A DNA stretch of 64,000 nt from an uncultured Acidobacteriota bacterium. Lineage in GTDB: Bacteria > Acidobacteriota > Vicinamibacteria > Vicinamibacterales > CAVVIG01. This document shows positions 6,551 through 64,000 of this stretch, piece by piece. Every line of letters begins with the position of its first letter. Position 1 is the first letter of the stretch. The stretch is from positions 607,537 to 671,536 of the forward strand of contig CAVXGU010000004.1 in assembly GCA_963761615.1 (NCBI GenBank). Reading direction: 5' to 3'. The notes below the pieces were generated by a model. That model was not told the DNA's origin. It searched no databases and worked only from the letters and a program-made list of their open reading frames with translations. Both the position numbers and the translations under genes were made by a program.

Positions 6551-7570
6551 GACAGCCTCGATGTCCGGCTGCTCGGCACTGATGCGACTGCAGGCAGCCC
6601 AGTGATCCGGCTGGATCTCGACGAGCGCCGGCTCCGACTGCGCGCACGCCTCGATGGCGTACGGGCACCGCGTGTGGAAGCGGCAGCCTGACGGCGGATC
6701 GATCGGGGAGGGGACGTCTCCCTGCAGCACGATGCGACGGCGGCGCGCCTCGGCGTCGGGATCGGGCAGCGGCACGGCCGAGATGAGCGCCTTCGTATAC
6801 GGCATGAGCGGCCGGTCGTAGATCTCCGTTGCCCCCGCCACCTCGACGATCTTCCCCAGATACATCACCGCGACCCGGTCCGACGTATGGCGGATCGCGC
6901 GCAGGTCGTGCGAGATGAAGAGGAAGGTCAGGGTGCGCTCGCGGCGGAGGCGCTCGATCAGGTTGAGGATTTGCGCCTGGATCGACACGTCGAGCGCCGA
7001 GATCGGCTCGTCGGCCACGATGAAGTCGGGCTCGGTGGCCAGGGCGCGCGCGATGCCGATGCGCTGCTGCTGCCCGCCGGAGAACTCGTGCGGATAGCGA
7101 TTGATGAACCGCTCGCTCAGGCCGACGACGGCCATCAGCTCCCGGACGCGGTCTCGGCACGCCAGGCCAGCGGCCAGGCGGAAGGTCTCGATGGGCTCGG
7201 CGATGATCTCGCCGACGGTCATCCGCGGGTCGAGGGAGGCGTACGGGTCCTGGAAGATCATCTGCATGTGGCGGCGCTCGCGGCGCAGCCGCGCGGCCGG
7301 AAGCGCCGTGATCTCCGTGCCGCGGAACGTGACCCGGCCGCCGGTGGGCTCCACCAGCCGCAGGATCGCGCGGCCCAGCGTCGTCTTGCCGCAGCCGCTC
7401 TCCCCGACGAGGCCGAGCGTCTCGCCCGGGCGGATGTCGAACGACACCCCGTCGACGCTCCGCACGACCTGTGGCACGGGACTGCCGCCCGTGAGGCGAT
7501 CGAGGAGGGTGCCGCCCCCGATGGGAAAGTGGACCTGCAGGTCCTGCACCGAGACGAGGGGAGTCGTCAC
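6548..7570 (-). CDS. Oligopeptide/dipeptide ABC transporter ATP-binding protein (OppF/DppF type)
   Basis: Walker A GESGCGKT, signature FSGGQQQR, Walker B FIVADEP, C-terminal oligopeptide domain ([12 protein letters not shown]). GTG 7570 overlaps the upstream stop (GTGA). Confidence 0.9.
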
Positions 7571-27261: not shown

Positions 27262-27262
27262 C

Positions 27263-27763
27263 CTAGCGTCCGCCGTTGCGCTCGAAGAACATGACGGGAC
27301 GCTCGCGGTGCGCCACCGCGCGGGCGATGCGCCGCATCGTGGATGCCAGGTCGTGCCGCGTTGCGTCGGGCAGGGCGCGCAGGGCATCGATGATGTCCGT
27401 CTGCGCCGCGACCGGGGCGGCCCGGAGGGCCGTGCGGCCCCGGGGCGTGATCGACAGGGCGCGGCGCCGCCCGTCGGTCGGGGACCGCCGCGCGCGCACC
27501 AGCCCGCGCCGTGTCAGGCGCGAGACGACGACCGAGACCGAGCTCTGGTGCGTGTAGGTTCGCGCGGCCAGGTCGTTCACGGACAGCCCGTCGTGGTCGC
27601 GCAGCAGCTCGAGGATGAAGATCTGGGCCGCCGTGAGGCCGTTGCGACGCTCGGCCTCGCGCGACGACTCCCGCAGGCGCTGCACGATGTGCCGGATCGC
27701 ATCGAGGATCGCCTGGATGTCCCGGCTCTCGCGACTTCCCGCCGCATTTGAATGGGAACCCAT
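27263..27763 (-). CDS. MarR family transcriptional regulator
   Basis: Winged-helix region LTAAQIFILELLRDHDGLSVNDLAARTYTHQSSVSVVVSRLTRRGLV..DGRR. Confidence 0.85.
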   Translation of the reverse strand: MGSHSNAAGSRESRDIQAILDAIRHIVQRLRESSREAERRNGLTAAQIFILELLRDHDGLSVNDLAARTYTHQSSVSVVVSRLTRRGLVRARRSPTDGRRRALSITPRGRTALRAAPVAAQTDIIDALRALPDATRHDLASTMRRIARAVAHRERPVMFFERNGGR

Positions 27764-38452: not shown

Positions 38453-38503
38453 GAGCACCGAGAACCCCGAGAACCCCGAGCACCCCGAGAACCCCGAGAA
38501 CCC
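38453..38503 (+). repeat. Array of six 9-nt-type tandem repeats GAG(A/C)ACCCC immediately upstream of the USP gene
   Basis: GAGCACC GAGAACCCC GAGAACCCC GAGCACCCC GAGAACCCC GAGAACCC at 38453-38503. Confidence 0.8.
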
Positions 38504-38520: not shown

Positions 38521-39441
38521 ATGGATATCAAACGGATTCTGTGTCCGACCGATTTTTCGGAGACGTCGGCGCACGCGGCGGCGCAGGCCATGGCGATCGC
38601 GTCGTGGTACCACGCGCGCGTGACGGCGCTGCACGTGCTCAGCTCGCTCACGGTCGCGGTGCCTGGCCTCGCGACGGTCCACATGAAGGAAGGCGCCGTC
38701 AACGACGCCGACGTGCGCCAGATGGCCCGCAAGGAGATCGTCGAGACGTTCGCGGCCAACGGCCCCGCCGGCGTGGAGGTGGAACCGCTGGTGGACTCGG
38801 GCGATCCGACGCAGCGCATCCTCGAGTGCGCGCTGGGGCTGCCCGCGGACCTGATCGTCATGGGCACGCACGGACTCGGCGGCTTCGAGCACTTCGTCCT
38901 GGGCTCGGTCACCGAGAAGGTGCTGCGCAAGGCGCCGTGCCCCGTGCTCACAGTGCCGCCCCGCGCCCAGACCCGCGCGCGGCTGCCGTTCAAGCGCCTG
39001 CTCTGCGCGGTGGACTTCTCCGAGTCGTCCCTGCAGGCCGTGCAGCTGGCGGCCTCGCTCGCCAAGGAGTCGGACGCCGAGCTCGACCTGCTGCACGTGA
39101 TCGAGTGGCCGTGGACGGAGCCGCCGGCCCCGGACTTCGCCGCGATCCCGCCGGAGCAGGCGCTGGCGCTCGCCGAGTTCCGCCGCTACAGCGAAGAGAC
39201 CGCGGCGTCGCGCCTCGAGAGCCTCGTGCCGACCGGGCCCGGGGCCTCCCGCCGCCCCGTCGCCAGAGTGACCAACGGCAAGCCGTACGTCCAGATCCTG
39301 GACGTCGCCAGCGAAGAGCACGTCGACCTCATCGTCATCGGCGTTCACGGGCACAACGTGCTGGACCGGGCGTTCTTCGGATCGACGGTCAACCAGGTCG
39401 TGCGCCGGGCGAGCTGTCCGGTGCTCACTCTGCGGCAGTAG
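38521..39441 (+). CDS. Universal stress protein with tandem USP domains
   Basis: MDIKRILCPTDFSETS.. and a second ..KRLLCAVDFSESS.. domain. Each ends in a G-x2-G-x9-GS(V/T) ATP-binding-type motif (GTHGLGGFEHFVLGSVTEKV; GVHGHNVLDRAFFGSTVNQV). Confidence 0.9.
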   Translation: MDIKRILCPTDFSETSAHAAAQAMAIASWYHARVTALHVLSSLTVAVPGLATVHMKEGAVNDADVRQMARKEIVETFAANGPAGVEVEPLVDSGDPTQRILECALGLPADLIVMGTHGLGGFEHFVLGSVTEKVLRKAPCPVLTVPPRAQTRARLPFKRLLCAVDFSESSLQAVQLAASLAKESDAELDLLHVIEWPWTEPPAPDFAAIPPEQALALAEFRRYSEETAASRLESLVPTGPGASRRPVARVTNGKPYVQILDVASEEHVDLIVIGVHGHNVLDRAFFGSTVNQVVRRASCPVLTLRQ

Positions 39442-41875
39442 GCGCGGCCCCTTTCGCGGCGGCCGCCCCGGCGCCGGCCTCGGCCGCCGCGACGCGGAAC
39501 GTGGTGGCGACGGCGACGTCCGGATTGAGCGAGATCGAGTCGATGCCCTCGCCGACCAGCCAGGCCGCGAAGTCGGGATAGTCCGACGGCGCCTGACCGC
39601 AGATTCCGATCGGCTTGTGCAGCTTGCGCGCCGCCGCGATGGCACGTGCGATCATCCAGCGTACGGCCTCGTTGCGCTCGTCGAACAGGCGGGCCACGGT
39701 GCCCGAGTCGCGGTCGAGGCCGAGCGTCAGCTGCGTGAGGTCGTTCGACCCGATGGAGAAGCCGTCGAACACCTGGAGGAAGGCCTCGGCCAGGATGGCG
39801 TTCGACGGGACCTCGCACATCGCGTAGATCTCGAGGCCGTCCTCGCCCTGCCGCAGCCCGTTGGCCGCCATGACCTCGATGACGCGGCGGCCTTCGTCCA
39901 CGGTGCGGCAGAACGGGATCATCACCTTGATGTTGGTCAGACCCAGCTCGCCGCGCGCGCGTCGGATGGCGGCGCACTCGAGGGCGAATCCCTCCGCGTA
40001 GCGCTCGTCGTAGTACCGGGAGGCCCCGCGGAAGCCCAGCATCGGGTTCTCCTCGGCCGGCTCGAACTCCCCCCCGCCCACGAGCTGCGCGTACTCGTTG
40101 GTCTTGAAGTCGCTCATCCGCACGATCACCGGCTTGGGATAGAACGCTGCCGCGAGGCGTCCGATGCCCTCGCTGAACCGCCGGACGAAGAAGTCGCCGG
40201 CCGCCTCGGGGCCGATCCGGGCCGCGATGTCCTTGACGACCTGCGGATCCTTCAGGCGCGGATAGCGCACGAGCGCCATCGGGTGGATGCCGATGTGGTT
40301 GGTGATGACGAACTCGGCGCGCGCCAGGCCCACGCCCTGGTTGGGGATGCGGGCCAGGTCGAAGGCGCGGCTCGGATCGCCGACGATCAGCATCACGTGC
40401 GTGCGGGTCTGGGGCACGCGCGAGGCATCGACGCGCGCGACCTCGAACGGCACTCGACCGGCGTAGACGTGGCCTTCGGCGCCTTCGGCGCAGCAGACCG
40501 TCACGTCGGCGCCGCTCTGCAGCGTGCGCGTCGCGTTCTCGGTGCCGACGATGCACGGGAGGCCGAACTCGCGGGACACGATGGCCGCGTGGGCGGTGCG
40601 CCCGCCCTTGTCGGTAACGATGGCCGACACGCGGCGCATCACCGGCTCCCAGTCCGGATCGGTCATCTCGGCGACCAGCACGTCGCCATCCTGGACGGCG
40701 TCGAGGGCCGACACCTCCCGCACCACCCGCACGCGTCCGCTGCCGATGCGCTCACCCACGGCCTGGCCGCGCACGAGCGGTTCGCCGGGCTTGGCCGTCA
40801 GGTGGTACACCTCCGCCACGGACGTGTGCGCCCTGGCGGAGTGTACGGTCTCGGGCCGCGCCTGGACGATGAACAGCTGGCCCGTGAGGCCGTCCTTGGC
40901 CCACTCGATGTCCATCGGCTGCGCGTGCCCCGCGAGCGTCGAGTAGTGCTCTTCGATCAGGCAGGCCCACCGCGCCAGCGTCAGCACGTCGTCGTCGCCC
41001 AGGCAGAAGCGCGCGCGCTCGTCGGCGGGCGTCGGCTCGCTGCGCGTGGCCTTGGTACCGCCGGCGTAGACGAGGCGCACCTCCTTGGTGCCCAGGCTCC
41101 GGCTGACGATCGCGCGATGTCCGGTCGCGAGCGTCGGCTTGAACACCGTCCACTCGTCAGGCGTGACGACGCCCTGGACGATGAACTCGCCGAGGCCGTA
41201 GACCCCGGAGACCGTGACGACGTCCCGGAAACCGGACTCGGTGTCCAGCGTGAAGATCACGCCGGAGCTCGCCTTGTCGGAGCGCACCATGGGCATGACG
41301 CCGACCGAGAGCGCGACCTTGAGCTGGTCGTAGCCGAGCCGCGCCCGGTAGCTGATCGCGCGATCCGTGAAGAGCGACGAGTAGCACGCCTGGACGGCGC
41401 GGAGCAGACCTTCGCGCCCGCGGACGTTGAGGAAGGTCTCGGCCGCTCCGGCGAAGGACGCCTCGGGCAGGTCCTCGGCGGTGGCCGACGAGCGGACGGC
41501 GAGCTCCGGCTCGCGTCCCGCGCGCGCGCACAGCCGGTCGTAGCCGGCGAGGATGGACGTGCGCAGGCTGTCGGGCAGGGTCGTCTCGAGCACGGCCGCC
41601 CGGGCGGCCTCGCCGCGGTGGGCGAGCTCGGCGAGGTTCTCGGCGTCGAAGGTCGAGAAGATCGACTGCAGGCGGGCCCGGAGGCCGCCGGCGTCGAGCA
41701 GACGCCAGTACGCGTCGGCGGTGGTGGCGAAGCCGTCGAGCACGCCGACGCCCCTGGGCTGGAGCGCTCGGAAGAGCTCGCCGAGCGACGCATTCTTCCC
41801 GCCGACGCGCGGAAGGTCGGCCAGCGTGATGTCGGCGAAGTCGAGCACGTCGGGTGCGGGCGATGGGGGTGTCAT
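39425..41875 (-). CDS. ppsA: Phosphoenolpyruvate synthase (pyruvate, water dikinase)
   Basis: ATG 41875. N-terminal LPRVGGKNASLGE, phosphohistidine motif GGRTAHAAIVSREFGLPCIVG, C-terminal PEP-utilising TIM barrel (..GFSIGSNDLTQL..). The 3' end overlaps the USP gene by 17 nt. Confidence 0.9.
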   Translation of the reverse strand: MTPPSPAPDVLDFADITLADLPRVGGKNASLGELFRALQPRGVGVLDGFATTADAYWRLLDAGGLRARLQSIFSTFDAENLAELAHRGEAARAAVLETTLPDSLRTSILAGYDRLCARAGREPELAVRSSATAEDLPEASFAGAAETFLNVRGREGLLRAVQACYSSLFTDRAISYRARLGYDQLKVALSVGVMPMVRSDKASSGVIFTLDTESGFRDVVTVSGVYGLGEFIVQGVVTPDEWTVFKPTLATGHRAIVSRSLGTKEVRLVYAGGTKATRSEPTPADERARFCLGDDDVLTLARWACLIEEHYSTLAGHAQPMDIEWAKDGLTGQLFIVQARPETVHSARAHTSVAEVYHLTAKPGEPLVRGQAVGERIGSGRVRVVREVSALDAVQDGDVLVAEMTDPDWEPVMRRVSAIVTDKGGRTAHAAIVSREFGLPCIVGTENATRTLQSGADVTVCCAEGAEGHVYAGRVPFEVARVDASRVPQTRTHVMLIVGDPSRAFDLARIPNQGVGLARAEFVITNHIGIHPMALVRYPRLKDPQVVKDIAARIGPEAAGDFFVRRFSEGIGRLAAAFYPKPVIVRMSDFKTNEYAQLVGGGEFEPAEENPMLGFRGASRYYDERYAEGFALECAAIRRARGELGLTNIKVMIPFCRTVDEGRRVIEVMAANGLRQGEDGLEIYAMCEVPSNAILAEAFLQVFDGFSIGSNDLTQLTLGLDRDSGTVARLFDERNEAVRWMIARAIAAARKLHKPIGICGQAPSDYPDFAAWLVGEGIDSISLNPDVAVATTFRVAAAEAGAGAAAAKGAAPTAAE

Positions 41876-42095
41876 GTCGAAGCTCCAGTGTTCGCGCGTG
41901 CGCCGCGGGTGTCTGTGGATGTCAGCGTCGACCGCTGCAAGATCGTCTCCCGGGACGATGGCGCCGGTGCGCCTGCGGACACGGGATTTGACGGGATTCC
42001 GACGCGTCGGGTCTCGAAGCCCGGCGGATCGTCGACAGCGGGCGCATTTGCGCCAGCACGGGTCTTGCGTCAGCCTGTAGGCAGGGAGGTTCCCC

Positions 42096-42278
42096 ATGCA
42101 GCTCCAGCTGAGTGACACCGAAGCCGGCATCCTCAGGGATGTCCTGAGCGATTACCTGTCGGGCCTGAAGCGGGAAGTCGCGCGCACCGAACAGCACGAA
42201 TACCGCCACATGCTGGTTCAGCGGCAGGAGCTCTGCGAGCGCCTGTTCAAGCAGCTGGGGGCCGGCGCGGCGACGTAA
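42096..42278 (+). CDS. Small (60 aa) helical hypothetical protein
   Basis: ATG 42096 preceded by GGGAGG. GC3-rich codon usage like its neighbours. Amphipathic-helix-like sequence MQLQLSDTEAGILRDVLSDYLSGLKREVARTEQHEYRHML.. No family recognised. Confidence 0.5.
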   Translation: MQLQLSDTEAGILRDVLSDYLSGLKREVARTEQHEYRHMLVQRQELCERLFKQLGAGAAT

Positions 42279-50162: not shown

Positions 50163-51155
50163 TCAGACCCGGACCCGCGGGTCGAGCGCCGCATACGCCA
50201 CGTCGGAAAGGAATCCGGCGATGAGCACGAGGACCGCCACGAACAGCGTGACGCCCGCGACGGAGTTGACGTCGTTCTTCGTCACCGAGTCGACGAAATA
50301 CTCGCCCATCCCGTGCCACCCGAAGATCTTCTCGGTGAAGGTCGCTCCGACGAAGAGGAGCGCGAACTCGTAGGCGAAGAACGTCGCCATGGGAATGAGG
50401 GCGGTGCGCAGGCCGTGGCGGATGAGGGCCCGCGACCGCCGGAGTCCCTTGGCGCGCGCGGTCCGCAGGAAGTCGCTCCCCAGCACGTCGAGCATGGCGC
50501 TGCGCTGGTATCGGCCGTAGAACGCCATGGCCGCGACCGTCAGGACCAGCGACGGCAGCGCCAGGTGGCCCAGCCGGTTGACGATGCCGGTCCAGGACCA
50601 CGGATTCAGGCCGGGGGTGATCTCCCCCGTCGTGTACAGCAGCTTCGTATCCCCGGTGAATCCGAGCAGGTTGTTGATCCCGATACCCCCGTTCTTGAAG
50701 AGCACCGCCAGGACGACGACCGGAATCGACAGGATGACGAAGGAGAACACCGTCAGGACGTGATCGGACCACTGCCGCTGTTTGACGGCCCCGTAGGCGC
50801 CCGCGGCGACGCCCAGGAACGTGCCCAGGAGCGAGCCGATGAGCATCAGCCGGAGACTGACCCAGATGCGGCGGGAGATCTCGTCGTTCACGGGCGTGTT
50901 GTCGACCGTCCGCCCGAGATCGCCGTGGAGCACGCCGCCCGCCCACCGCTCGAAGCGGATGGCGAGCGGCGTCTTGTCGTTCATGTTGATCGCGTCGAGG
51001 GCGGAATCCACGACGGCCGGCGGCGGCGGGGGATTGCGGCCCTCGTACCGCGCCCGGGGATTGAGCTGCGTGGCGGCGAGGACGTACGCGACGGACGTGG
51101 ACACGACGACGAGGACGATCAGATAGACCAGCCGTCGGACGAGGAACGCGGCCAT
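50163..51155 (-). CDS. Peptide ABC transporter permease (DppB/OppB type)
   Basis: MAAFLVRRLVYLIVLVV.. is the typical OppB N-terminus. DFLRTARAKGL motif. Ends ..DPRVRV. Confidence 0.9.
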   Translation of the reverse strand: MAAFLVRRLVYLIVLVVVSTSVAYVLAATQLNPRARYEGRNPPPPPAVVDSALDAINMNDKTPLAIRFERWAGGVLHGDLGRTVDNTPVNDEISRRIWVSLRLMLIGSLLGTFLGVAAGAYGAVKQRQWSDHVLTVFSFVILSIPVVVLAVLFKNGGIGINNLLGFTGDTKLLYTTGEITPGLNPWSWTGIVNRLGHLALPSLVLTVAAMAFYGRYQRSAMLDVLGSDFLRTARAKGLRRSRALIRHGLRTALIPMATFFAYEFALLFVGATFTEKIFGWHGMGEYFVDSVTKNDVNSVAGVTLFVAVLVLIAGFLSDVAYAALDPRVRV

Positions 51156-51197
51156 CGCTCCGTCAATTGTAGTCGATGGCCCGCGGCGCCCGCCGGG

Positions 51198-51944
51198 CTA
51201 CTCCCACCGGAAGACGCGCGAGGACACGGCCGTGAACGCGGCGGCGATCAGCACGAGCATGACGACGTCGCCGAGATGGCCGGACCAGCCGTCGCCGTAC
51301 CAGATGCCTCGCAGCAGCGAGACGGCATAGGTCATCGGCGAGACGCGCGCGACCAGGCCGAGCGCCGGCGGCAGATCCCCGACGGGCACGAACAGCCCCG
51401 AGATCCCCAGCAGGGGATAGAAGATCAGCGTCCCGATCGGCTGGGCGAAGCGGGCGGTGCGGACGAGGCTGGCGAGGACGAAGCCCATCGCGAGAATGCT
51501 CAGCGTGCTGAAGAGGAGCGCCAGCGCGAAGCCCACGAGCGGGACGCCGGGATCGATGGGGTAGTAGCGTCTCCCCGCCAGGATCATGAGCGCCAGCGTC
51601 ACGGCCGTGAACAGCAGCTTCACCAGCACGTGCGCCGCCAGAATCGTGGGCGGCCGGAGCGGCGTCGCCCGCAGGCGCTTGAGAATGCCGCTGTCGCGGT
51701 AGATGGAGATGACGGCGACCAGCGACAGCGAGGCGCTGATGGCGATGAGCAGCGCGCCGAAGACCGGCAGATCGGCGCCGATCGCCCCGGGGACCTCGCC
51801 GCCTTGTCTCGCATCGCCGCCGAGCACTCGCCCCAGCAGGACGAACAGGACGACCGGCAGCACCACCGTCCCGACGACGCCCAGCGGCTCGCGGACGAAG
51901 ATCTTGATCTCCAGCCAGGTCAGTTTCAGCAGTCCGCGTGACAT
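51198..51944 (-). CDS. ABC-2 type exporter permease
   Basis: 6-TM ABC-2 membrane protein directly downstream of its ATPase gene. Confidence 0.8.
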   Translation of the reverse strand: MSRGLLKLTWLEIKIFVREPLGVVGTVVLPVVLFVLLGRVLGGDARQGGEVPGAIGADLPVFGALLIAISASLSLVAVISIYRDSGILKRLRATPLRPPTILAAHVLVKLLFTAVTLALMILAGRRYYPIDPGVPLVGFALALLFSTLSILAMGFVLASLVRTARFAQPIGTLIFYPLLGISGLFVPVGDLPPALGLVARVSPMTYAVSLLRGIWYGDGWSGHLGDVVMLVLIAAAFTAVSSRVFRWE

Positions 51945-51948
51945 CGTG

Positions 51949-52878
51949 TCAGTCCCGGATCGCGTGGCCGGTCAGCTCGAGGAAGACGTCCTCGAGCGTG
52001 GGGATCTCGGTGCGGAAGTCGGTCACCCGCATCCGGTGCTCCGCCAGGCACTGGATCACCTGCGTGACGACGTCGCCGCCGCCGCGAATCGTGATCTCGT
52101 GTCCGTCGCCCTCGGCCACCGTCACCGCCGGAATCGCACGAAAGCGCCCGGCCGCGGCCGGATCCTCGATCGCGACGACGACCGTTCGCACCGGGCAGTG
52201 GCGCCGCACGAGCGCCGCCGGCGGACCGATGTCCACGATGCGGCCGTGGTCGATGATGGCGACCCGGTCGCACAGACGCTGCGCCTCTTCCATCAGGTGG
52301 GTCGTCAGGAAGACCGTCCGTCCCTTGCGGCGGATGTCGCGCACCAGCTCCCAGATGGCGCGCCGTGCCTGCGGGTCCAGTCCCGTCGTCAGCTCGTCGA
52401 GGAAGACCACGTCCGGGCTGTTGACCAGGGCGAGGGCGATGAAGAGGCGCTGCTTCTGGCCGCCGGAGAGCGTCATGAACCACGCCCGGCGCTTGTCGCC
52501 GAGGCCGAGCTGTTCGATCAGGCCGTCGGCGTCGACGCGCGTGCCGTAGAGCGCCGCCCACAGGTCCACGGCCTCCCGCACCTCGATCCGCTTCTGGAGC
52601 TGGGCCTCCTGGAGCTGCACGCCGATCCGCTGCTGGAGTGCGGCAGCCTGGCGCGCCGGATCGAGCCCGAGGACGGAGATCGTCCCCCGATCCGGAACGC
52701 GCAGTCCCTCGACGCACTCCATCGTCGTGGTCTTGCCGGCGCCGTTGGGGCCGATCAGGCCGAAGATCTCGCCGGCCTCGACGTCGAACGACACGTCATC
52801 GACGGCGACCGTGCGGCCGTAGGTCTTGTGGACGTGCGCCACGTGGATCACGGCGCTGCGTGTCGTCAGTCCCGCCAT
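51949..52878 (-). CDS. ABC-2 type exporter ATP-binding protein
   Basis: ATG 52878 (Met30 of the ORF). GPNGAGKTT, LSGGQKQR, VVFLDELTTGLD. Confidence 0.85.
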   Translation of the reverse strand: MAGLTTRSAVIHVAHVHKTYGRTVAVDDVSFDVEAGEIFGLIGPNGAGKTTTMECVEGLRVPDRGTISVLGLDPARQAAALQQRIGVQLQEAQLQKRIEVREAVDLWAALYGTRVDADGLIEQLGLGDKRRAWFMTLSGGQKQRLFIALALVNSPDVVFLDELTTGLDPQARRAIWELVRDIRRKGRTVFLTTHLMEEAQRLCDRVAIIDHGRIVDIGPPAALVRRHCPVRTVVVAIEDPAAAGRFRAIPAVTVAEGDGHEITIRGGGDVVTQVIQCLAEHRMRVTDFRTEIPTLEDVFLELTGHAIRD

Positions 52879-53064
52879 CGGTCGTGAGGATGTTACACGC
52901 GGATCCGTCGCGCCGAACAGATGAGGCGAACCGGAACCTTCCCTTTTGGGGCGGATCCGAGTCATGCTGTCAGACGTTCGCTTGCCCCGTCCCGACGTCT
53001 CGCGACCGATCCGCCGCCGCCACGCCGGAACATCCCGTCACCGCGTTCGAAGGGAGGCCAGCAG

Positions 53065-55593
53065 ATGGGCCAGGTGGTGCGTGACGAGACCACGCCGGCG
53101 TCGAAGCCAATCCCCGACACGCTCGACCACCTGCGCGCCCGCCTGGCGGAGCATCCTGGCGGGCTGACCGCCGCCCAGGTCGACGCCGCCCGCCAGCAGT
53201 TCGGCTACAACGAGCTGCCCGAAGCAAAGACCAGCCTCCTCGCGCGGTTCCTCTCCTACTGGTGGGGCCCCATCGCCTGGATGATCGAATCCGCCGCGAT
53301 CCTCTCGGCGCTCGTGCGGCACTGGACCGACTTCGCGATCATCCTGGCCCTCCTGGTGATGAACGCCGGCGTCGGATTCTGGGAGGAATTCCAGGCGGGC
53401 AACGCGATCGCGGCCCTCAAAGCGCGGCTCGCCCTGCGCGCCCGCGTCAAGCGCGATGGCGCCTGGACGACGGTGGCCGCGCGGGAGCTCGTGCCCGACG
53501 ACCAGATCCGCCTCCGCTTCGGCGACATCCTGCCGGCCGACGCCCAGCTCCTCGACGGCGATCCCATCGAAGTCGATCAGTCGGCGCTGACCGGCGAATC
53601 GCTGCCGGTGACCCGCAAACCCGGCGATACGGTCTACGCGGGCTCGATCGTCAAGCGCGGCGAGATCGGCGCCGTCGTGTCCGCGACCGGCGCGCGCACC
53701 TACATGGGCCGCACGGCCCACCTGGTGGAGTCGGCGCACGCCGCCAGCCACTTCCAGCGCGCGGTGCTCAAGATCGGCGACTACCTGATCGTCGTCGCCG
53801 TCCTGCTCGTCGTGCTGATCCTGGGGGTGGCGATCTTCCGCGGCGATCCGATCCTGACGACGCTGCAGTTCTGCCTCGTCCTGACGGTCGCTGCCGTGCC
53901 CGTCGCCATGCCGGCCGTGCTGTCGGTCACGATGGCCGTGGGGGCCCGCGTGCTGGCCCGGCGTCAGGCGATCGTGACGCGGCTGGCGGCGATGGAGGAG
54001 CTGGCGGGCATCGACGTGCTCTGCTCCGACAAGACCGGCACGCTCACGCAGAACGTCCTCACGCCCGGGGATCCCTTCTGCGCGCCCGGCGTCGCCCCCG
54101 ACGCGCTGCTCCTCGCCGCCGCCCTCGCGTCCCAGGCGCAGAACGAGGATCCCATCGACCTGGCGGTGCTCGGCGCCGTCGCCGATCGACGCGCGCTCGA
54201 GGCGTACCGCCTCGTGCACTTCGAGCCGTTCGACCCGGTGCACAAGCGGACCGAGGCGGAGGTCGAGGGCCGCGACGGCCGGCACCTGCACGTCGCCAAG
54301 GGGGCGCCGCAGGTGATCCTGGACCTCGCCGCGCCCCCCGACCGTCAGGCGGCCATGCGCGCGGTGGACGACTTCGCGGCCCGCGGTTTCCGCGCGCTCG
54401 GCGTCGCGCAGAGCGCCGACGGCACGGCGTGGCAGTTCCTCGGCCTGCTGCCGCTCTTCGACCCGCCGCGTCCGGATTCGAAGGAGACGATCGCGACCGC
54501 GATGCGCATGGGCATCGCGGTGAAGATGGTGACCGGCGATCAGCTCGCCATCGCAAAGGAGACGGCGCGCCAGCTCGGCCTGGGCGACCGCATCGTCGAC
54601 GCGTCGGGGCTCGACGCCGGAGACGGCGGCGCGGCGGGTCTGGCGCGCAAGATCGAGAACGCCGACGGCTTCGCGCAGGTGTTTCCCGAGCACAAGTTCC
54701 GGATCGTGGAGGTCCTCCAGCAGCGCGGGCACTTCGTCGGCATGACGGGCGACGGCGTCAACGACGCGCCGGCCCTCAAGCAAGCCGACGCGGGCATCGC
54801 CGTCTCCGGCGCCACCGACGCCGCGCGGGCGGCCGCCGACATCGCGCTCCTCCAGCCCGGCCTCTCCGTCATCGTCGGAGCCGTCGACGAGAGCCGGAAG
54901 ATGTTCCAGCGGATGAACAGCTACGCGATCTACCGGATCGCCGAGACGCTGCGCGTGCTGCTGTTCATGACGCTCTCGATCCTCGTCTTCAACTTCTATC
55001 CGGTCACCGCCGTGATGCTCGTGCTGCTGGCGATCCTCAACGACGGCGCGATCCTGTCGATCGCCTACGATCGGGTGCCGAAGTCGGATCGCCCGGAATC
55101 CTGGAACATGCCGGTCGTCCTGGGCATCGCCAGTGCGCTCGGCCTCGCCGGCGTCGTGGCCTCCTTCGGGCTGTTCTACGCCGCCGAGCGCGTGTTCCAC
55201 GTCGGGCGCGACACCATCCAGTCGCTGATGTACCTCAAGCTCTCGGTGGCGGGGCACCTGACGATCTTCGTGACGCGCACGCGCAAGCGGTTCTGGCAGA
55301 CCCGCCCGGCCGGCATCCTGCTCGGCGCCGTCCTGGCGACGCAGCTGGTCGCGACGCTGATCGCCGTCTACGGCGTCTTCATCTCGCCGATCGGCTGGAC
55401 GTGGGCGATCGCGGTCTGGGTGTACGCCCTGGCGTGGTTCGTCGTGAACGACCAGATCAAGATCGCGGCCTATCGCGTGTTCGACGCGCGCGAGACCGGG
55501 CTCCTGCTCCAACGCGTACGGTCGCACACGATGCGGCACATCTGGGACTCGTTCGCCGGCGCAGCGAAGGCGCACCGGCCGGGGGTGCGATGA
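53065..55593 (+). CDS. P-type ATPase of the plasma-membrane H+-ATPase (P3A) type
   Basis: ATG 53065 after AAGGGAGG. N-terminal [21 protein letters not shown], phosphorylation motif [28 protein letters not shown]. 842 aa. Confidence 0.85.
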
Positions 55594-58010
55594 CGAAGAC
55601 GCTCTCACGCGGACTGTTGCAGCGCATGAACGCCTACTGGCGCGCGGCCAACTACCTGTCCGTGGGCCAGATCTACCTGATGGACAACCCCCTCCTGAAG
55701 CGGCCGCTCACGCCGGCCGACATCAAACCGCGCCTGCTGGGCCACTGGGGGACGACCCCCGGACTGAACTTCGTCTACGTCCACCTCAACCGGCTGATCA
55801 CCGAACACGACCTCGACCTGATCCTCATCGTCGGCCCGGGTCACGGCGGGCCGGGGATCGTCGCGAACACGTACCTCGAGGGCACCTACAGCGAGCTGTA
55901 CCCGAACGTGTCGTGCGACGAGCCGGGCATGAAGCGGCTGTTCACGCAGTTCTCCTTTCCCGGCGGCATCCCCAGCCACTGCGCGCCCGAGACGCCCGGG
56001 TCGATCAACGAGGGCGGCGAGCTCGGGTACAGCCTCGCCCACGCGTACGGCGCGGCCTTCGACAACCCCGGTCTCTTCGTGACGTGCATCATCGGCGACG
56101 GCGAAGCGGAAACCGGCGCCCTGGCCACGAGCTGGCACTCGAACAAGTTCTTCAACCCGGCGCGGGACGGCGCGGTGCTCCCGATCCTCCACCTGAACGG
56201 CTACAAGATCGCGAACCCGACGGTGCTCGCCCGGATCGGCCGCGACGAGCTCGGCCGCCTCCTGACCGGCTACGGGTACGAGCCCGTGTTCGTCGCCGGC
56301 GACGACCCGATGGCCGTGCACTCGCTGCTCGCCGACGCCCTGGATCGCGCGCTCGACCGGATCCGGGCGATCCAGTCGGCGGCGCGCGCCCGCGGGTTCA
56401 AGCGCCGCCAGGCCTGGCCGGTCGTCGTGCTGGAGACGCCGAAGGGCTGGACCGGACCGAAGATCGTCGACGGCCTCCGCGTCGAAGGGACGTTCCGCGC
56501 CCACCAGGTGCCCCTCGCCGAGGTGCGGACCCGGCGGTCGCACTTGAAGATGCTCGAACGGTGGATGAAGAGCTACGAGCCGGCCGAGTTGTTCGACGAC
56601 CACGGCGCGCCCGATCCGCGCCTGGCCGAGCTCGCGCCGAAGGGGGACCGACGGATCGGCGCGAACCCGCACGCCAACGGCGGACGGCTGCTGCGCGACC
56701 TGCGCATGCCGGACTTCCGGACCTATGCCGTCGAGGTGGGCGCGCCGGGGACGACCCGCGCCGAGGCGACGCGCGTGGCCGGCGGGTTCCTCCGGGACGT
56801 GATGCAGGCCAACTGGGACGCGCGGAACTTCCGCGTCTTCGGTGCCGACGAGACCGCCTCGAACCGGCTCAGCAGCCTGTTCGACATCACCAGCCGGACG
56901 TCCACCGCCGAGATCCTGCCCGGCGACGACCACGTCTCGCCCGACGGCCGCGTGATGGAGGTCCTCAGCGAGCACCTCTGCCAGGGCTGGCTCGAGGGCT
57001 ACCTGCTGACCGGTCGGCACGGCTTCTTCTCGTGCTACGAGGCCTTCATCCACATCGTGGACTCGATGTTCAACCAGCACGCCAAGTGGCTGAAGGTGAC
57101 GCGGGGCATTCCCTGGCGGCGGCCGATCGCGTCGCTGAACTACCTGCTGACCTCGCACGTCTGGCGGCAGGACCACAACGGTTTCAGCCATCAGGACCCC
57201 GGCTTCCTCGACCACGTCGTCAACAAGAAGGCCGACGTCATCCGGGTCTACCTGCCGCCCGATGCGAACACGCTGCTCTCCGTCGTCGATCACTGCCTGC
57301 GGAGCCGGCACTACGTCAACGTGATCGTGGCCGGCAAGCAGCCCGAGCTCCAGTGGCTCGACATGGACACCGCCGTGAAGCACTGCACGGCCGGCGTCGG
57401 CGTGTGGGAATGGGCGAGCAGCGACCGCGGCAGCGAGCCCGACGTCGTGATGGCGTGCGCCGGCGACGTGCCGACGCTCGAGACGCTCGCGGCCGTCGAA
57501 CTGCTGCGGCAGCACCTGCCCGCACTCAAGGTGCGCGTGGTGAACGTGGTGGACCTGATGACGCTGCAGCCGCACAGCGAACACCCCCACGGGCTGAGCG
57601 ATCGCGACTTCGACGCGATCTTCACCATCGACAAGCCGATCATCTTCGCCTTCCACGGCTACCCCTGGCTGATCCACCGGCTGACCTACCGCCGGACGAG
57701 CCACGCGAACCTCCACGTCCGGGGCTACAAGGAAGAGGGCACGACGACGACGCCTTTCGACATGGTGGTGATGAACGACCTGGACCGCTTCCACCTGGCG
57801 GGCGACGTCATCGACCGCATTCCCGGCCTGGGCGCCCGCGCCGCCTACGCGAAGCAGTTCCTCCGGGACAAGCTGCTCGACCACAAGCAGTACGTCCGGC
57901 AGTACGGGGAGGACATGCCCGAGATCCGGAACTGGGTCTGGCAGGCGGCCGCGCCGGCCGGCAGGACGCGGCGTGCCGCGCGCGGCCGGACGCGGCGGAC
58001 CGGGCGATGA
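55590..58010 (+). CDS. xfp: Phosphoketolase (xylulose-5-P/fructose-6-P phosphoketolase)
   Basis: ATGA overlap with the ATPase stop. N-terminal [39 protein letters not shown] signature. 806 aa. Confidence 0.92.
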
Positions 58011-59692
58011 CGGCCGCGGGTTCGGGCGTGAGCCCGCTGGCGGGGACACCGCCCGACGCGGCGATGCTCGTGGACGTCTCGAAGCTCGTCGCCGCCTACT
58101 TCGACGAGCGGCCGGACCCGGCCATCGAGGCGCAGCGCGTCGCCTTCGGCACGTCCGGGCACCGCGGCTCGGCGTTCGCCCGTTCCTTCAACGAGTGGCA
58201 CATCCTCGCGATCACCGAGGCGATCTGCGAGTACCGGGCCGCCCACGGGATCGACGGTCCGATCTTCGTGGGACGCGACACGCACGCGCTGTCCGAGCCG
58301 GCGTGGACGAGCGCCCTCGAGGTCCTCGCGGCCCACGACGTCCCCGTGATGGCGTCGGCGCGCGACGAGTTCACGCCGACGCCGGTGGTGTCGCATGCGA
58401 TTCTCACCTACAACCGCGGCCGGAGCCGCGGGCGGGCCGACGGCATCGTCATCACGCCGTCGCACAACCCGCCCGAGGACGGCGGCTTCAAGTACGATCC
58501 GCCGCACGGCGGGCCGGCCGGCGCGCAGACGACGTCGTGGATCCAGCGCCGGGCCAACGAGCTGCTCGCCGCCGGGCTCGCCGGCGTGGTGCGGATGCCG
58601 CTCGAGCAGGCGCGGCGCGCCCCGACCGTCCACCGCCACGACTTCCTCGACGCGTACGTGGCCGATCTGGGGTCGGTGCTCGATCTCGACGCCGTCCGCG
58701 CGTCCGGGCTGCGGATCGGCGTCGATCCCCTCGGCGGCGCCGGCGTCCACTACTGGGCGCCGATCGCCGAACGCTGGGGCCTGGACCTGACCGTGGTGAG
58801 CGATGTCGTGGATCCGACCTTCCGGTTCATGACGCTCGACTGGGACGGCCGCATCCGGATGGATCCGTCGTCGCCGTACGCGATGCGGCGGCTCGTCGGC
58901 CTGAAGAATCGCTTCGACGTCGCCTTCGCCTGCGATACGGATCACGACCGTCACGGCGTCGTCGCGCCGAGCGTGGGGCTCGTCCCGCCGAACCACTACC
59001 TGGCGGTCTGCATCCACTACCTGTTCGCGCACCGCGACGGATGGGGACGCGATGCGGCGGTCGGCAAGACGCTCGTCAGCAGCACGATGATCGACCGCGT
59101 CGCGGCGGCGCTGGGTCGCCGGGTCGTCGAGACGCCCGTCGGATTCAAGTGGTTCGTCGACGGCCTCCTGGACGGATCGCTCGGGTTTGCCGGAGAGGAG
59201 AGCGCCGGCGCCACGTTCCTCCGGCGCGACGGAACCGTGTGGACGACCGACAAGGACGGGATCGCCGCGGCGCTGCTCGCAGCCGAGATCACGGCGCGGC
59301 TCGGGCGGGATCCGGGCGACGTGTACCGGACGCTCACCGAGACGCACGGCGCACCGGCGTACGCCCGCATCGAGGCGGAAGCCACGCCGGAGGAGAAGAA
59401 GCGCCTCGCCTCGCTGTCGCGAGCCGACATCGCGGGCGACACGCTCGCCGGGGAGCCGATCCTGCAGGTGCTGACCGACGCGCCGGGTGACGGCCAGCCG
59501 ATCGGCGGGGTGAAGGTGACCACGGCGAGCGGATGGTTCGCCGCGCGGCCGTCGGGGACCGAGGATGTGTACAAGATCTATGCGGAGAGCTTCCGGGGAG
59601 CAGCGCATCTGGAGGCGATTCAGACCGAGGCGCGGGCGATGGTGACGGCGGCCCTCGCCCGTGGTGCGGGCGCCGCGGCAGGAGAGCGATGA
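58007..59692 (+). CDS. pgm: Phosphoglucomutase, alpha-D-glucose-phosphate specific
   Basis: ATGA overlap with the xfp stop. FGTSGHRG, active-site [20 protein letters not shown]. 561 aa. Confidence 0.9.
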
Positions 59693-62223
59693 GCCACCCG
59701 ATGGACACGACGAGGGCGCCAGGGCCGTTCCGGTCCGACGCGCTCACCGAGCTGGCCCTCGACCTGCGGTGGTCGTTCAACCACGCCGCCGACGCGGTGT
59801 GGCGCCGGCTGGACCCGGTGCTCTGGGACCTGACGCACAACCCGTGGTTCGTGCTGCAGACCGCGTCGCACGCGCGCCTCGAGGAGGTCGCGGGCGACGC
59901 CGACTTCCAGCAGCTCATCGCCGACGTCGTCCGCGAGAAACGGCAGGCGACCGAGTCGCCCGGGTGGTTCGGGAGGACCTATCCAGAGGCTTCGCTCGCG
60001 CGCGTCGCCTACTTCAGCATGGAGTTCATGTTGACCGAGGCGCTGCCAATCTATTCCGGCGGTCTTGGCAACGTGGCGGGCGACCAGCTGAAAGCCGCCA
60101 GCAACCTCGGCGTTCCGGTCGTGGGCGTGGGCCTGCTCTACCAGCAGGGGTACTTCCGGCAGACGCTGGACGCGCAGGGCCGCCAGCAGGCGCTGTACCC
60201 GTTCAACGACCCGGGCCAGCTGCCCATCCGTCCGCTGCGGGACGCGACGGGGGAGTGGATGCGGTTTCCCATCGCATTCGGCGGCGCGGACGTGTGGATT
60301 CGCGTGTGGCAGGCGCAGATCGGCCGCGTGCGCCTCTACCTGCTCGACACGAACGATCCGGCGAACACCCCGTCGAGCCGCGGCATCACGAGCGAGCTGT
60401 ACGGCGGCGACGCGGAGTTGCGCCTCAAGCAGGAGATCGTGCTGGGCATCGGCGGGTGGCGCGCGCTGTGCGGGAGCGGACCGGCGCCGGACGTCTGTCA
60501 CCTGAACGAGGGGCATGCCGCCTTCGCCGTGCTGGAGCGGGCGCGCACCCACATGGCGTCCGGCGGGCAGTCGTTCGAGCTCGCGCTGGCGGTGACGCGC
60601 GTTGGCAACCTCTTCACGACGCACACGCCGGTCGACGCGGGGTTCGACCGCTTCGCCCCCGATCTGATGGCCCGGTATCTGGCGGCGTACGCGGAGCACG
60701 ATCTCGGGATCGCGTTCGACGATCTGCTCGCCATGGGACGACGCGATCGCACCGACGCCCGTGAGCCGTTCAACATGGCGTACCTCGCCGTCCGCGGCAG
60801 CGGTGCGGTCAACGGCGTCAGCCGGCTGCACGGTGAGGTGAGCCGCCGGATCTTCCAGCCGCTGTTCCCGCGCTGGCCCCGCGCCGACGTCCCCGTCGGG
60901 TACGTGACCAACGGCGTCCACATGCCGTCGTGGGATTCGGCCGACGCAGACCGGCTGTGGGAGTCGACCTGCGGCAAGGAGCGCTGGCGCTGGACGATGC
61001 CCGACATGGAACAGGAGTTCCGCCACGTCACCGACGAGGCGCTGTGGCAGCTCAGGACCGACTCCCGCGGCGCCTTCGTGGCGTACGTGCGCGAGCGGCT
61101 CGCCCGGCAGCTCGCGGAGCAGGGCGCTCCGGCCGTCGACGTGGCGAACGCCGGGCGGATCTTCGAGCGCGACGCGCTCACGATCGGCTTCGCGCGCCGC
61201 TTCGCGTCCTACAAGCGGCCGAACCTGCTGCTGCACGACCCGGATCGGCTGGCGCGGCTCCTGTCGGACCGCCAGCGGCCCGTGCAGCTGGTGGTCGCCG
61301 GCAAAGCGCATCCCCAGGACGCCGTCGGCCAGGCGCTCGTCGCGGAGTGGGTGCGCTTCATCGCGCGGCCGGACGTGCGCGGGCGGGTCGTCTTCCTGGC
61401 GGACTACGACGTGCTCATGGCCGAGCGCCTCGTCCAGGGGATCGACCTCTGGATCAACACGCCCCGGCGGCCCTGGGAAGCCTGCGGCACGAGCGGCATG
61501 AAGGTGCTCGTGAACGGGGGGCTGAACTGCTCGGAGCTCGACGGCTGGTGGGCCGAGGCCTACACGCCCGAGGTCGGCTGGGCGATCGGGGACCGCCGCG
61601 AACACGACGAGGATCCGGCGTGGGACGCGTCGGAGGCCGACGTGCTGTATGCGCTGCTCGAGGGCGAGATCGTCCCGGCGTTCTACGATCGGGACGCGCG
61701 CGGCATCCCGGCGCACTGGGTGGCGCGGATGCGCGAGAGCATGGCGCGGCTCACGCCGGCGTTCTCCGCCAACCGGTCGGTCCGCGAGTACACCGAGACC
61801 CGCTACCTGCCGCTCGCCGCCGCGTATCACGCACGCGCGGCGGACGCGGGCGAGGCCGGTGCGGCCCTGCTGACCTGGCGCACGGCGCTCGAACGCAGCT
61901 GGGCGGCGGCGAGGTTCACGAGCCGCGAGGTCGACACCGCCGACGGCCATCACACGTTCCGGGTCGGCGTCGACCTCGGCGGGCTCGATCCGGACGGCGT
62001 TCGCGTCGAGCTGTACGCGGAAGGCGGCCCGGGGGACGAGCCGGCCCGCGTGGTCTTGCCGCGCGCCGCGCCCGGTGGTCACGACGGCCGCCCGCTCTAC
62101 GTCGGTTCGGTTCCGGCCTCGCGGCCGGCCAGCGACTTCACGCCGCGACTCGTGCCCCATCGGGCCGGCGCGTCGATCCCCCTGGAGGCGCCGCTGATTC
62201 TCTGGGATGATCGAGGCCGATGA
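59689..62223 (+). CDS. glgP: Alpha-glucan (glycogen/maltodextrin) phosphorylase, GT35
   Basis: ATGA overlap with the pgm stop. YFSMEF...YSGGLG.LAGD-type N-terminus (here GGLGNVAGD). PLP-lysine region EACGTSGMK. Confidence 0.88.
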
Positions 62224-64000
62224 CAACGCCACCCACCGAGAAGAGCCCCGTCACGTCGAAGCAGACGCCGGGCGCGCCCCGCGGGCCGCGCGGCGCCCCC
62301 CCGCCGCGGACCCCGCCGCCCACCCCGCCGGCGGGGAAGGGCCCCCAGCCCCCGCGCATCGGTCCGCTGACGTGGCTGCTGTTCCTGCTGCTCATCGTCT
62401 GGAACATCTGGTCGTTCCTGCCGAACCAGAACGCGGGCGTCCAGCTGCCGTACAGCGCCTTCGTCGCGCAGGTCGAGGGCGGCAACGTCGCGCGGGTGCA
62501 CATCGAGGGCGACGCGATCAGCGGGAGCTTCGCGAAGGAGATCACCTGGCCGCAGCCGGCCGGGGCGAGCGGCGGCACGCCGCCGGCGGCGTCCCAGGGC
62601 GGTGGTGAATCGCAGGCGGGCAGCGCGCCGGCGCCGCAGAAGTACACCTCGTTCCGCACGACGTTTCCGAGTGTCGTGGGGGACACCTCGCTGATGCCGC
62701 TGCTCCAGTCGCATCACGTGGTCATGGACGTCCAGGCGCCGTCGGAGCCGTGGTTCACCCTGCTGCTGACCAACGGCCTGCCCATATTGCTCATCATCGG
62801 CTTCCTCGTGTGGATGGGACGGCAGGCCGCCAAGAGCCAGCAGGGGATGTTCGGGTTCGGACGCACCCGCGCGAAGCGCTACTCGCCGGACCGGCCGAAG
62901 GTGACGTTCGCCGACGTCGCGGGCGCCGACGAGGCGAAGGCGGATCTCACCGAGGTCGTCGACTTCCTGCAGCACCCGGGCAAGTACCTCGAGATCGGCG
63001 CGAAGATCCCGCGCGGTGTGCTGCTCGTCGGCCCGCCTGGAACGGGCAAGACGCTGCTGGGGCGCGCCGTCGCCGGCGAAGCGGGCACGCCGTTCTTCAG
63101 CATCAGCGGGTCGGAGTTCGTGGAGATGTTCGTCGGCGTCGGCGCGAGCCGCGTGCGGGACCTCTTCACGCAGGCCAAGGCCGCCGAGCCGTCGATCGTG
63201 TTCATCGACGAGCTGGATGCCGTGGGGCGCCGGCGCGGCGCGGGTCTCGGCGCGGTGAACGACGAGCGGGAGCAGACGCTCAACCAGCTGCTCGTCGAGA
63301 TGGACGGATTCGACGAGCGCCAGCAGGTGATCATCCTCGCGGCCACCAACCGGCCGGACGTGCTCGACCCGGCGCTCCTGCGCCCGGGGCGCTTCGACCG
63401 CCAGGTGGTCGTGCCGCTGCCGGACTGGCGCGGCCGCGAGGGGATCCTGCGGATCCACACGCGGCACCTCCATCTCGCCGAGGGCGTGGATCTCCAGCGC
63501 CTCGCGCGGACCGCCACGGGCCTCAGCGGCGCCGACCTCGCGAACCTGTGCAATGAGGCCGCGCTCCACGCGGCGCGCCAGAACCGCACCGAGGTCGCCA
63601 TGGACGACTTCGAGCAGGCCTGGGACAAGATCGTGCTGGGCGCGGAGCGGTCGACGGTGCTGACGCCGCGGGATCGGCGGATTGTCGCCTATCACGAGGG
63701 CGGACACGCGGTGGTGGCCTGGCTCACGCCGGGCGCCGATCTCGTCCGCAAGGTGACCATCGTGCCACGCGGCCGCGCGCTCGGCGTCACCGAACAGCTG
63801 CCGACCGAGGACCGCTACAACATGAGCCGGACCGAGCTCCTCGCGCGGATCGACGTGATGCTCGGCGGGCGCACGTCCGAAGCGCTGGTGATCGGCGACA
63901 TCACGACCGGCGCCGAGAACGACCTGCTGCAGGCCACGCAGCTGGCGCGGCGGATGATCACGCGATGGGGGATGGGCGAACTGGGGCCGGTCGCGTTCTC
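62220..64000 (+). CDS. ftsH: ATP-dependent zinc metalloprotease FtsH (3' end beyond the window), with a Pro-rich N-terminal extension
   Basis: Not in the ORF track because no stop falls in the window. ATG 62220 forms an ATGA overlap with the glgP stop. Translation gives two TM segments, Walker A GPPGTGKT, Walker [31 protein letters not shown], and zinc motif HEGGH. Confidence 0.9.

Follow-up and report, generated by a model that had tools for sequence, protein, structure and literature searches.

A P3A-type ATPase gene heads a putative five-gene operon with phosphoketolase and glucan phosphorylase in an acidobacterium, and pump and fuel genes are neighbours across bacterial phyla

A 64,000-nucleotide stretch of DNA from an uncultured Acidobacteriota bacterium (contig CAVXGU010000004.1, positions 607,537 to 671,536; this whole stretch is called the window) ends with five plus-strand open reading frames (ORFs) arranged head to tail from 53065 to the window end, encoding a P3A-type H+-ATPase, a phosphoketolase (Xfp), an alpha-phosphoglucomutase (Pgm), an alpha-glucan phosphorylase and an FtsH protease. 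Our reading, to which we give a probability of roughly 60%, is that the five genes form one translationally coupled operon, and that this operon is a compact version of a widespread, rearranging and mobile neighbourhood in which a P3A pump is joined to substrate-level phosphorylation fed by stored polymers. The neighbourhood itself is observed directly: genes for the pump and for enzymes leading from reserves to ATP are linked across distant taxa, above background and independently of their order, and make up a conserved functional neighbourhood.

One genome per GTDB species was scanned by alignment of ATPase homologues, and at least 593 stretches were confirmed. From the 80 best ATPase matches, 79 P3A-ATPase loci of other species were taken, with ATPases 63-77% identical to that of the window; flanking ORFs were clustered and annotated with Pfam, and partners were scored by tblastn within 10 kb of the ATPase gene. 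The control was a set of 80 FtsH-centred loci (1.0 Mb), not taxonomically matched to the pump loci, from a metagenome scan with FtsH in which generic FtsH stood, among the matches listed, at 44-61% identity. The 79 loci span at least nine phyla (Acidobacteriota, Alpha-, Beta- and Gammaproteobacteria, Verrucomicrobiota, Nitrospirota, Bacteroidota, Actinomycetota, Planctomycetota, Elusimicrobiota, Chloroflexota and others). At least one of Xfp, acetate kinase (AckA), the same type of glucan phosphorylase (GlgP), Pgm and polyphosphate kinase 2 (PPK2) was present in 49 of the 79 loci; Xfp was found in 33, PPK2 in 28, AckA in 17, GlgP in 15, class I fructose-bisphosphate aldolase (FBA) in 13, Pgm in 9, glucose-6-phosphate dehydrogenase in 8, 6-phosphogluconate dehydrogenase in 7, transaldolase in 5, phosphoglucose isomerase (Pgi) and phosphate acetyltransferase (Pta) in 4 each, and a GlgX-like debranching enzyme in 3. 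All partner counts in the controls were zero (Fisher p = 1e-12 for Xfp and 2e-20 for any partner). The partners were mostly immediate same-strand neighbours with frequent 4-nt overlaps; ATPase-PPK2 was the commonest adjacent pair, and the median gap between Xfp and ATPase was about 1.3 kb. An earlier note on this DNA had tied the P3A pump to glycogen and phosphoketolase catabolism from the window alone, and the linkage of ATPase, Xfp, GlgP and Pgm across phyla bears this out; the steps missing from the window (ackA, pgi, pta) are carried by clusters of relatives.

The arrangement of the genes varies. L001, a metagenome contig whose ATPase is 91% identical, keeps the order ATPase-Xfp-Pgm-GlgP; its gene coordinates overlap, and its first junction reads ATGA. 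The expectation in the earlier note of a gene order conserved in related genomes held for this closest relative only; elsewhere Xfp mostly precedes the ATPase on the same strand (24 of the 33 Xfp loci), and orders such as Pgm-GlgP-AckA-Xfp-ATPase (L007), Xfp-FBA-ATPase-PPK2 (L068) and ATPase-Pgm-GlgP (L004) are seen. L002 (ATPase 77% identical) has the ATPase gene joined by ATGA to Pgm and then FtsH, with neither Xfp nor GlgP. The L001 phosphoketolase (12526-14932) was split by the gene call into overlapping ORFs of 347 and 481 aa, a frameshift that stems from a sequencing error or marks a pseudogene. We also considered transfer of ATPase and Xfp as a unit and set it aside, since the modest correlation of their divergences (Mantel r = 0.36, p = 0.011) does not show co-inheritance.

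The fuel enzymes are exchanged for unrelated ones while the chemistry is kept. GlgP and Pgm are replaced by a GH65 disaccharide phosphorylase and a beta-phosphoglucomutase (beta-PGM) on the plasmids of Rhodococcus AQ5-07 and Frondihabitans, and by GH130, PMI and a HAD/PMM-like protein in at least six loci; loci with a swapped entry are L171 (8503-18376), L177 (5341-15295), L015, L035, L037, L039, L046 and L067. Entry of the fuel is always by phosphorolysis followed by a mutase, and this use of unrelated enzymes, like the presence of the ATP-regenerating neighbours AckA and PPK2, argues for function and against hitch-hiking.

Judged by its sequence, the product of the first gene is a P3A ATPase and not a divalent-cation pump. 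It passed the proton-efflux P-type ATPase model TIGR01647 with 1003 bits (cut-off 615.5) and fell below every cut-off of the Mg (316 bits), Ca (313 bits), K/Na (205 bits) and heavy-metal models, and its best matches in the PDB (entries 5KSD, 7VH5, 1MHS) were AHA2 (1.5e-205) and Pma1 of yeast and Neurospora (about 1e-192), with MgtA far behind at 5e-76. The catalytic motifs are intact (DKTGT with D322, TGES at 176, GDGVND at 562), and the residues of the AHA2 proton path, Asp684 in transmembrane segment (TM) 6, Arg655 in TM5 and Asn106 in TM2, align to D660, R630 and N100, the counterparts of which were invariant across 19 bacterial homologues. On the question raised in the earlier note, proton or divalent cation, family and residues speak against a divalent-cation pump, and the protein would be expected to move protons. 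The C-terminal autoinhibitory R domain is lacking, as expected of prokaryotic members (the alignment with AHA2 stops at residue 801). The top 120 of at least 8000 protein candidates were 67-100% identical to the ATPase and mostly labelled H+-transporting ATPase, and the named organisms among them were all bacterial.

Each of the five genes is an ordinary member of a known family, and their identities and intact active sites are directly supported; the annotations given in the earlier note all stand above curated cut-offs. Xfp scored 1472 bits against NF003619 (cut-off 962), contains PF09364, PF03894 and PF09363, and keeps both signature motifs (EGGELGY at 141 and G..DNP...GDGE at 154-172). Pgm scored 860 bits against TIGR01132 (cut-off 778), with all four PGM_PMM domains, a phosphoserine loop at 146 and TPSHNP at 150-155. 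The phosphorylase scored 784 bits against TIGR02094 (cut-off 192), has PF00343 and PF11897 with an N-terminal DUF3417, and carries the pyridoxal-phosphate lysine motif GTSGMK at 600. FtsH scored 707 bits against TIGR01241 (cut-off 600); its full-length form (P0122, 682 aa) has two TM segments, Walker A GPPGTGKT, Walker B DELD, the second region of homology and HEGGH.

The four junctions between these genes are each an ATGA (55590-55593, 58007-58010, 59689-59692 and 62220-62223), in which the ATG opens an uninterrupted ORF and the TGA closes the preceding one, exactly as the earlier note had placed them. Four successive overlaps are not the local norm, because of the window's remaining close same-strand junctions, about 12 in number, only one has a 4-nt overlap (GTGA, 7567-7570, between two oligopeptide-type ABC ATPase genes). 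Upstream of the start at 53065 stands a strong Shine-Dalgarno sequence, AAGGGAGG (53050-53057), and a G-rich or Shine-Dalgarno-like stretch lies 5-11 nt 5' of each internal start. A consensus scan for sigma-70 promoters and terminators found none on the plus strand inside the chain, which is weak evidence at the G+C content of about 70% that holds throughout the window; internal promoters or terminators had been named in the earlier note as signs against co-transcription. A single translationally coupled transcript across the five genes is thus plausible from the sequence. A longer ATPase start at 52921 was rejected, as it has no Shine-Dalgarno sequence, overlaps the divergent gene region and lies upstream of the position equivalent to 53065 at which homologues begin.

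The transcript would begin in the divergent intergenic region, the left edge of which (52879) is set by the start of the ABC ATPase gene as given by the L001 gene call, with an alternative start of that gene at 52965. Blocks within 52890-52970 are conserved with L001, including the palindrome GGAACCTTCC at 52933-52942, for which the L001 counterpart is GGAATCTTCC; the pattern GGAAnnTTCC occurs once in the window and was not enriched at other loci. An Rfam search of 51000-64000 returned no element. The divergent ABC-2 exporter pair is next to the pump gene not only in the window but also in L001 (84-88% identity) and L002, and whether it is part of the module is uncertain.

Table 1. Features of the putative operon and its upstream region, and plasmid-borne relatives of the pump-plus-fuel neighbourhood.
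Feature	Position	Strand	Size	Basis or content
ABC-2 exporter pair (ATP-binding protein and ABC-2 permease), divergent from pump gene	51198..52878	-		Pfam ABC_tran and DrrA1-3_C, ABC2_membrane
Divergent intergenic region, presumed promoter and leader	52879..53064	.		L001-conserved blocks, palindrome GGAACCTTCC, Shine-Dalgarno AAGGGAGG
P3A-type (plasma-membrane-type) H+-ATPase	53065..55593	+	842 aa	TIGR01647, 1003 bits
Xylulose-5-phosphate/fructose-6-phosphate phosphoketolase (Xfp)	55590..58010	+	806 aa	NF003619; XFP_N, XFP, XFP_C
Alpha-phosphoglucomutase (Pgm)	58007..59692	+	561 aa	TIGR01132; four PGM_PMM domains
Alpha-glucan (predicted glycogen/maltodextrin) phosphorylase, DUF3417/TIGR02094 type, GT35	59689..62223	+	844 aa	TIGR02094
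FtsH-family membrane AAA+ zinc protease	62220..64000 (ends near 64268 when complete)	+	cut at residue 593 by window end	TIGR01241
Polymorphobacter megasporae plasmid p29362-2	L173 12004-26388, L175 1-16470	one strand		ATPase-PPK2-PRC-tkt-zwf-rpe-ackA-gnd-tal-pgi-rpiA-Xfp-FBA-histidine phosphatase-8.5-kb 'glucoamylase family' gene-pgm-tpiA
Caballeronia sp. SBC2 plasmid				MaoC/Pta-AckA-ATPase-PPK2; integrases adjoining, chloride channel nearby
Rhodococcus sp. AQ5-07 plasmid				Slipin-Xfp-class I FBA-ATPase-beta-phosphoglucomutase-GH65 phosphorylase; plus universal stress proteins, NhaA
Frondihabitans sp. plasmid				Slipin-GH65-Xfp...ATPase-beta-PGM
Sphingomonas paeninsulae (conjugative) and Lichenicola plasmids				Variants with GH130, GH65, tal, rpiA, tpiA, PPK2, slipin

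The proposed course of events is as follows. GlgP would phosphorolyse glycogen to glucose-1-phosphate at no cost of ATP, Pgm would convert this to glucose-6-phosphate, and a Pgi that must lie elsewhere in the genome would yield fructose-6-phosphate; Xfp would split this to give acetyl-phosphate, from which an acetate kinase, likewise encoded elsewhere, would make ATP. The pump would spend the ATP on expelling protons, by which membrane potential and cytoplasmic pH would be held when the respiratory chain cannot do so, and no electron acceptor would be needed because the phosphoketolase route yields no net reducing equivalents. In related loci PPK2 would open polyphosphate as an alternative fuel, and Pta/MaoC with AckA probably polyhydroxybutyrate (PHB); FtsH may govern how much pump is present, or its quality. 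Related loci also encode Tal, Tkt, Rpe, Rpi, Tpi and Fba, a set which we take to match the non-oxidative glycolysis cycle of Bogorad et al. 2013. With these enzymes and a bisphosphatase, such a cycle could in principle yield three acetyl-phosphates per hexose and no net NAD(P)H, which would suit a cell that has no electron acceptor. The P. megasporae plasmid cluster, flanked by cydAB upstream and HdeA/B downstream, is by its sequence a near-complete natural set of these enzymes, in which a histidine phosphatase family protein is the candidate bisphosphatase. For plant and fungal P3A pumps the stoichiometry is 1 H+ per ATP (PMC10654040).

Several results weigh against our reading. The window holds no ackA, pta, pgi or PPK2 gene in its 64 kb, so the pathway is locally incomplete and the self-contained module of the earlier note is not what is encoded here. 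No fuel gene lay within 10 kb of the pump in 30 of the 79 loci, the loci were themselves selected by ATPase similarity, the controls differ from them in taxonomy, and L001 alone keeps the window's order. Proton transport has not been shown for any prokaryotic P3A ATPase (PMC10654040). Neither were regulatory sites for a low-oxygen response apparent: DosR-type boxes were no more frequent than by chance in the window, and FNR/CRP, Rex, DosR and ArcA-like boxes were not enriched upstream of the core genes in the 79 loci. FtsH lies beside the pump in one genome locus of the 79 (L081), a frequency close to chance expectation when that set is taken by itself.

The evidence on the trigger points in more than one direction. 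Low oxygen is hinted at by the cytochrome bd and universal stress protein (USP) genes that flank some clusters, by the induction of Xfp under microoxia in Bradyrhizobium (PMC6515984) and by the predicted place of phosphoketolase in the FixK regulon (PMC2908626); the earlier note had the module act when respiration stops, and the data would suit acid stress or dormancy just as well. The module could be an acid-stress device, in which the pump removes protons entering by leakage when the external pH is low, ATP from reserves frees it from respiration, and anoxia is not the trigger. The many carriers from acidic habitats or acidophilic groups (Acidobacteriaceae, Methylacidiphilales, Ferrovum, Acidiphilium cryptum, metagenome-assembled genomes (MAGs) from peat and fen), the recurrence of CLC Cl-/H+ exchangers in eight loci and on the Caballeronia plasmid, NhaA or NhaP-type exchangers near pump loci, an HdeA/B chaperone near one locus, and the service of plant and fungal P3A pumps as pH-stats (PMC10654040) all fit this. 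The end product, however, would be acetic acid, a permeant uncoupler at low pH; the bd oxidase and USP genes beside several clusters and the microoxic induction in Bradyrhizobium point elsewhere, the carriers include neutrophiles and lichen or Antarctic isolates, and the habitat signal is biased by a database rich in acidic-soil MAGs. On balance we regard this acid-stress reading as rather unlikely, though the strongest of the rivals.

A different objection is that there is no energetic coupling at all, and that the genes share a stress or mobile island, were shuffled by chance into an operon here, and leave pump and FtsH with roles unrelated to glycogen or phosphoketolase. The neighbourhoods are indeed mosaics with generic stress genes (USP, slipin/Band 7, HtrA, M50, YflT, aquaporin), insertion sequence elements and integrases, and both the 30 loci that have no fuel genes and the modest divergence correlation agree with such an origin. 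The partners are nevertheless very specific (AckA, PPK2, Xfp, carbamate kinase in one locus, sugar-phosphate rearrangement enzymes) and none occurs in the control loci; they usually stand in same-strand immediate adjacency, and their linkage outlasts both rearrangement and the non-orthologous swap of the phosphorylase/mutase pair, and we judge the objection improbable. Still less probable is that the ATPase moves K+, Na+, Mg2+ or Ca2+ and that ion homeostasis is the purpose of the module. Some neighbourhoods do contain Na+/H+ exchangers and K+ channels, and the literature leaves the transport function of prokaryotic P3A ATPases undetermined (PMC10654040), but the model scores and invariant proton-path residues given above speak for protons, and MgtA lacks the TM5 Arg (PMC10654040).

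The place of FtsH is less firm than that of the fuel genes. The earlier note had called the protease dedicated, and its distribution lends this weak support at most, as FtsH adjoins a pump in four contexts only: the window, L002, L081 (Chloroflexota) and a Burkholderia thailandensis plasmid. In L002 and L081 it lies directly 3' of the pump cluster; on the plasmid (AW34-19p plasmid p1, L172 8695-14421) the order is FtsH-AckA-P3A ATPase with a 4-nt overlap of FtsH and AckA. The plasmid FtsH belongs to a different lineage, 47% identical to that of the window, which suggests a separate recruitment, and from these sequences FtsH and pump seem to have been joined on more than one occasion. Paralogues nearest to the window FtsH (75-81% identity) are located in stress-type islands rather than in a housekeeping context: among the seven contexts of close paralogues, the ATPase is present in one (L002), Xfp or its remnants in three and CLC in two, in arrangements such as Xfp-cydAB-USP-DUF1614-FtsH and CLC-TrkA_C-FtsH, beside Xfp remnants, or beside an N-ATPase operon. 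Short XFP_C fragments, with weak acetate-kinase fragments, lie beside close paralogues in L082 (12132-12632), L083 (12132-12599) and L168 (8836-9387) and look like remnants of decayed xfp/ackA; in L168 they adjoin the N-ATPase operon (AtpR, ATPase_gene1, F-type subunits).

MgtA and MgtB, pumps of the sister subfamily P3B, are known substrates of FtsH (PMC10710835). In their turnover, which involves the peptides MgtR, MgtS and MgtU, the level of a P-type ATPase is thus set by a membrane AAA+ protease, and this precedent gives a concrete role to an FtsH encoded with a pump. Enterobacteria use a peptide-guided housekeeping FtsH for this, whereas the FtsH encoded with the pump here is paralogue-like. 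Proteins of the SPFH/slipin and NfeD types recur near pump loci; SPFH proteins include HflK and HflC, the partners of FtsH in an inner-membrane complex (PMC13220708). By analogy, FtsH may set the level or quality of a pump that has no autoinhibitory domain, a proposal that we hold tentatively and at somewhat less than even odds.

The window pump shares with AHA2 and Pma1 (plant and fungal P3A) and with archaeal P3A homologues the family TIGR01647, the catalytic motifs and the proton-path Asp, Arg and Asn, and with AHA2 and Pma1 also a proposed job, the ATP-driven energising of a membrane that respiration does not energise. It differs from AHA2 and Pma1 in being bacterial, in its 842 aa without N- and C-terminal regulatory domains, and in having its own ATP-supply genes alongside. 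Control of a pump without these domains would have to come from transcription and perhaps FtsH. Whereas a 2023 review places prokaryotic P3A pumps mainly in methanogens, with function undetermined (PMC10654040), the relatives found here belong to at least nine phyla of bacteria, and some are plasmid-borne.

The bifid shunt, the heterolactic pathway and xfp-ackA pairs resemble the proposed route in that Xfp yields acetyl-phosphate and AckA makes ATP from it, and synthetic non-oxidative glycolysis resembles the related loci in the rearrangement enzymes that these add. Unlike the known phosphoketolase pathways, the route here would take its substrate from the phosphorolysis of a reserve polymer and is physically tied to an ion pump that consumes ATP instead of to growth metabolism, and the window operon itself is without ackA and the rearrangement enzymes. 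Fermenting bacteria run the F1Fo-ATPase in reverse, spending substrate-level ATP on ion extrusion and so holding proton-motive force and pH. Compared with F1Fo, the P-type pump is a single polypeptide, and at the plant and fungal value of 1 H+ per ATP it would allow a steeper gradient per ATP; among N-ATPase operons, one (L168) has a close FtsH paralogue beside it together with an Xfp/AckA remnant.

The nearest described parallels are the lxa locus of Burkholderia cenocepacia and the mycobacterial DosR regulon, stress islands for persistence without oxygen in which USPs, acetate kinase, phosphate acetyltransferase and polyhydroxyalkanoate (PHA) genes stand together with a cation-transporting P-type ATPase (PMC3721108). 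The Burkholderiaceae plasmids found here, with MaoC/Pta-AckA-P3A ATPase-PPK2, resemble lxa; the lxa paper makes no mention of phosphoketolase or polyphosphate (PMC3721108), and its ATPase (BCAM0318), compared here by description, was likened by its authors to a cation-transporting ATPase of the DosR regulon (PMC3721108). Full-text literature searches, outside which most subscription journals lay, found no paper linking a P3A pump with phosphoketolase, acetate kinase, PPK2 or glycogen phosphorylase, and the bacterial papers found merely list a P3A gene, as for Acidithiobacillus. The conserved and mobile pump-plus-fuel neighbourhood thus appears undescribed within that scope, as the earlier note had supposed of the unit.

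Genomic context would give bacterial P3A pumps a function that can be tested in culture, the first such proposal, namely that substrate-level phosphorylation, drawing on reserve polymers, supplies them at times when the membrane cannot be energised by respiration. If true, this bears on the survival of strict aerobes in soil, peat and lichens where an electron acceptor is lacking; it would also mean that the capacity moves on plasmids. The same loci bring to light natural gene clusters with a near-complete set of non-oxidative-glycolysis enzymes. The origin of ATP-driven energisation of the plasma membrane is an open question (PMC10654040). One could speculate, though we think it rather unlikely to hold in full, that P3A pumps, a redox-neutral phosphoketolase cycle (a natural non-oxidative glycolysis with up to three acetyl-phosphates per hexose) and PPK2 make up a mobile 'emergency power pack'. 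Through anoxia, acid stress or dormancy, aerobes would use it to maintain membrane potential and internal pH at the expense of stored glycogen, trehalose, PHB or polyphosphate, and it would be a prokaryotic precedent for the ATP-energised plasma membrane of eukaryotes.

Other genes recur beside the pump. Among L003-L081 these encode SpoIIAA-like/STAS proteins (seven loci, usually directly upstream), PRC-barrel proteins (six loci, and plasmids), slipin/Band 7 proteins (eight loci), M50-CBS peptidases (seven) and aquaporins (five); DUF3141 is found beside the pump on Burkholderiaceae and Acidiphilium plasmids. Within the window, a CLC-type chloride channel/antiporter (25945-27513, minus strand) is about 30% identical to the CLCs that recur beside pumps, and a tandem-USP gene with a convergent pyruvate phosphate dikinase gene (38522-42151), typical of stress and hypoxia islands, lies 11-15 kb upstream of the operon. 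For an RluD-like gene, the nearest relative with a named source is from an Acidobacteriota MAG (60% identity). Directly 5' of the tandem-USP gene (ATG at 38522), at 38458-38503, are five tandem 9-mers (CCGAGAACC, 94% matches) followed by TAGAGTATTGACA, and this array may be regulatory.

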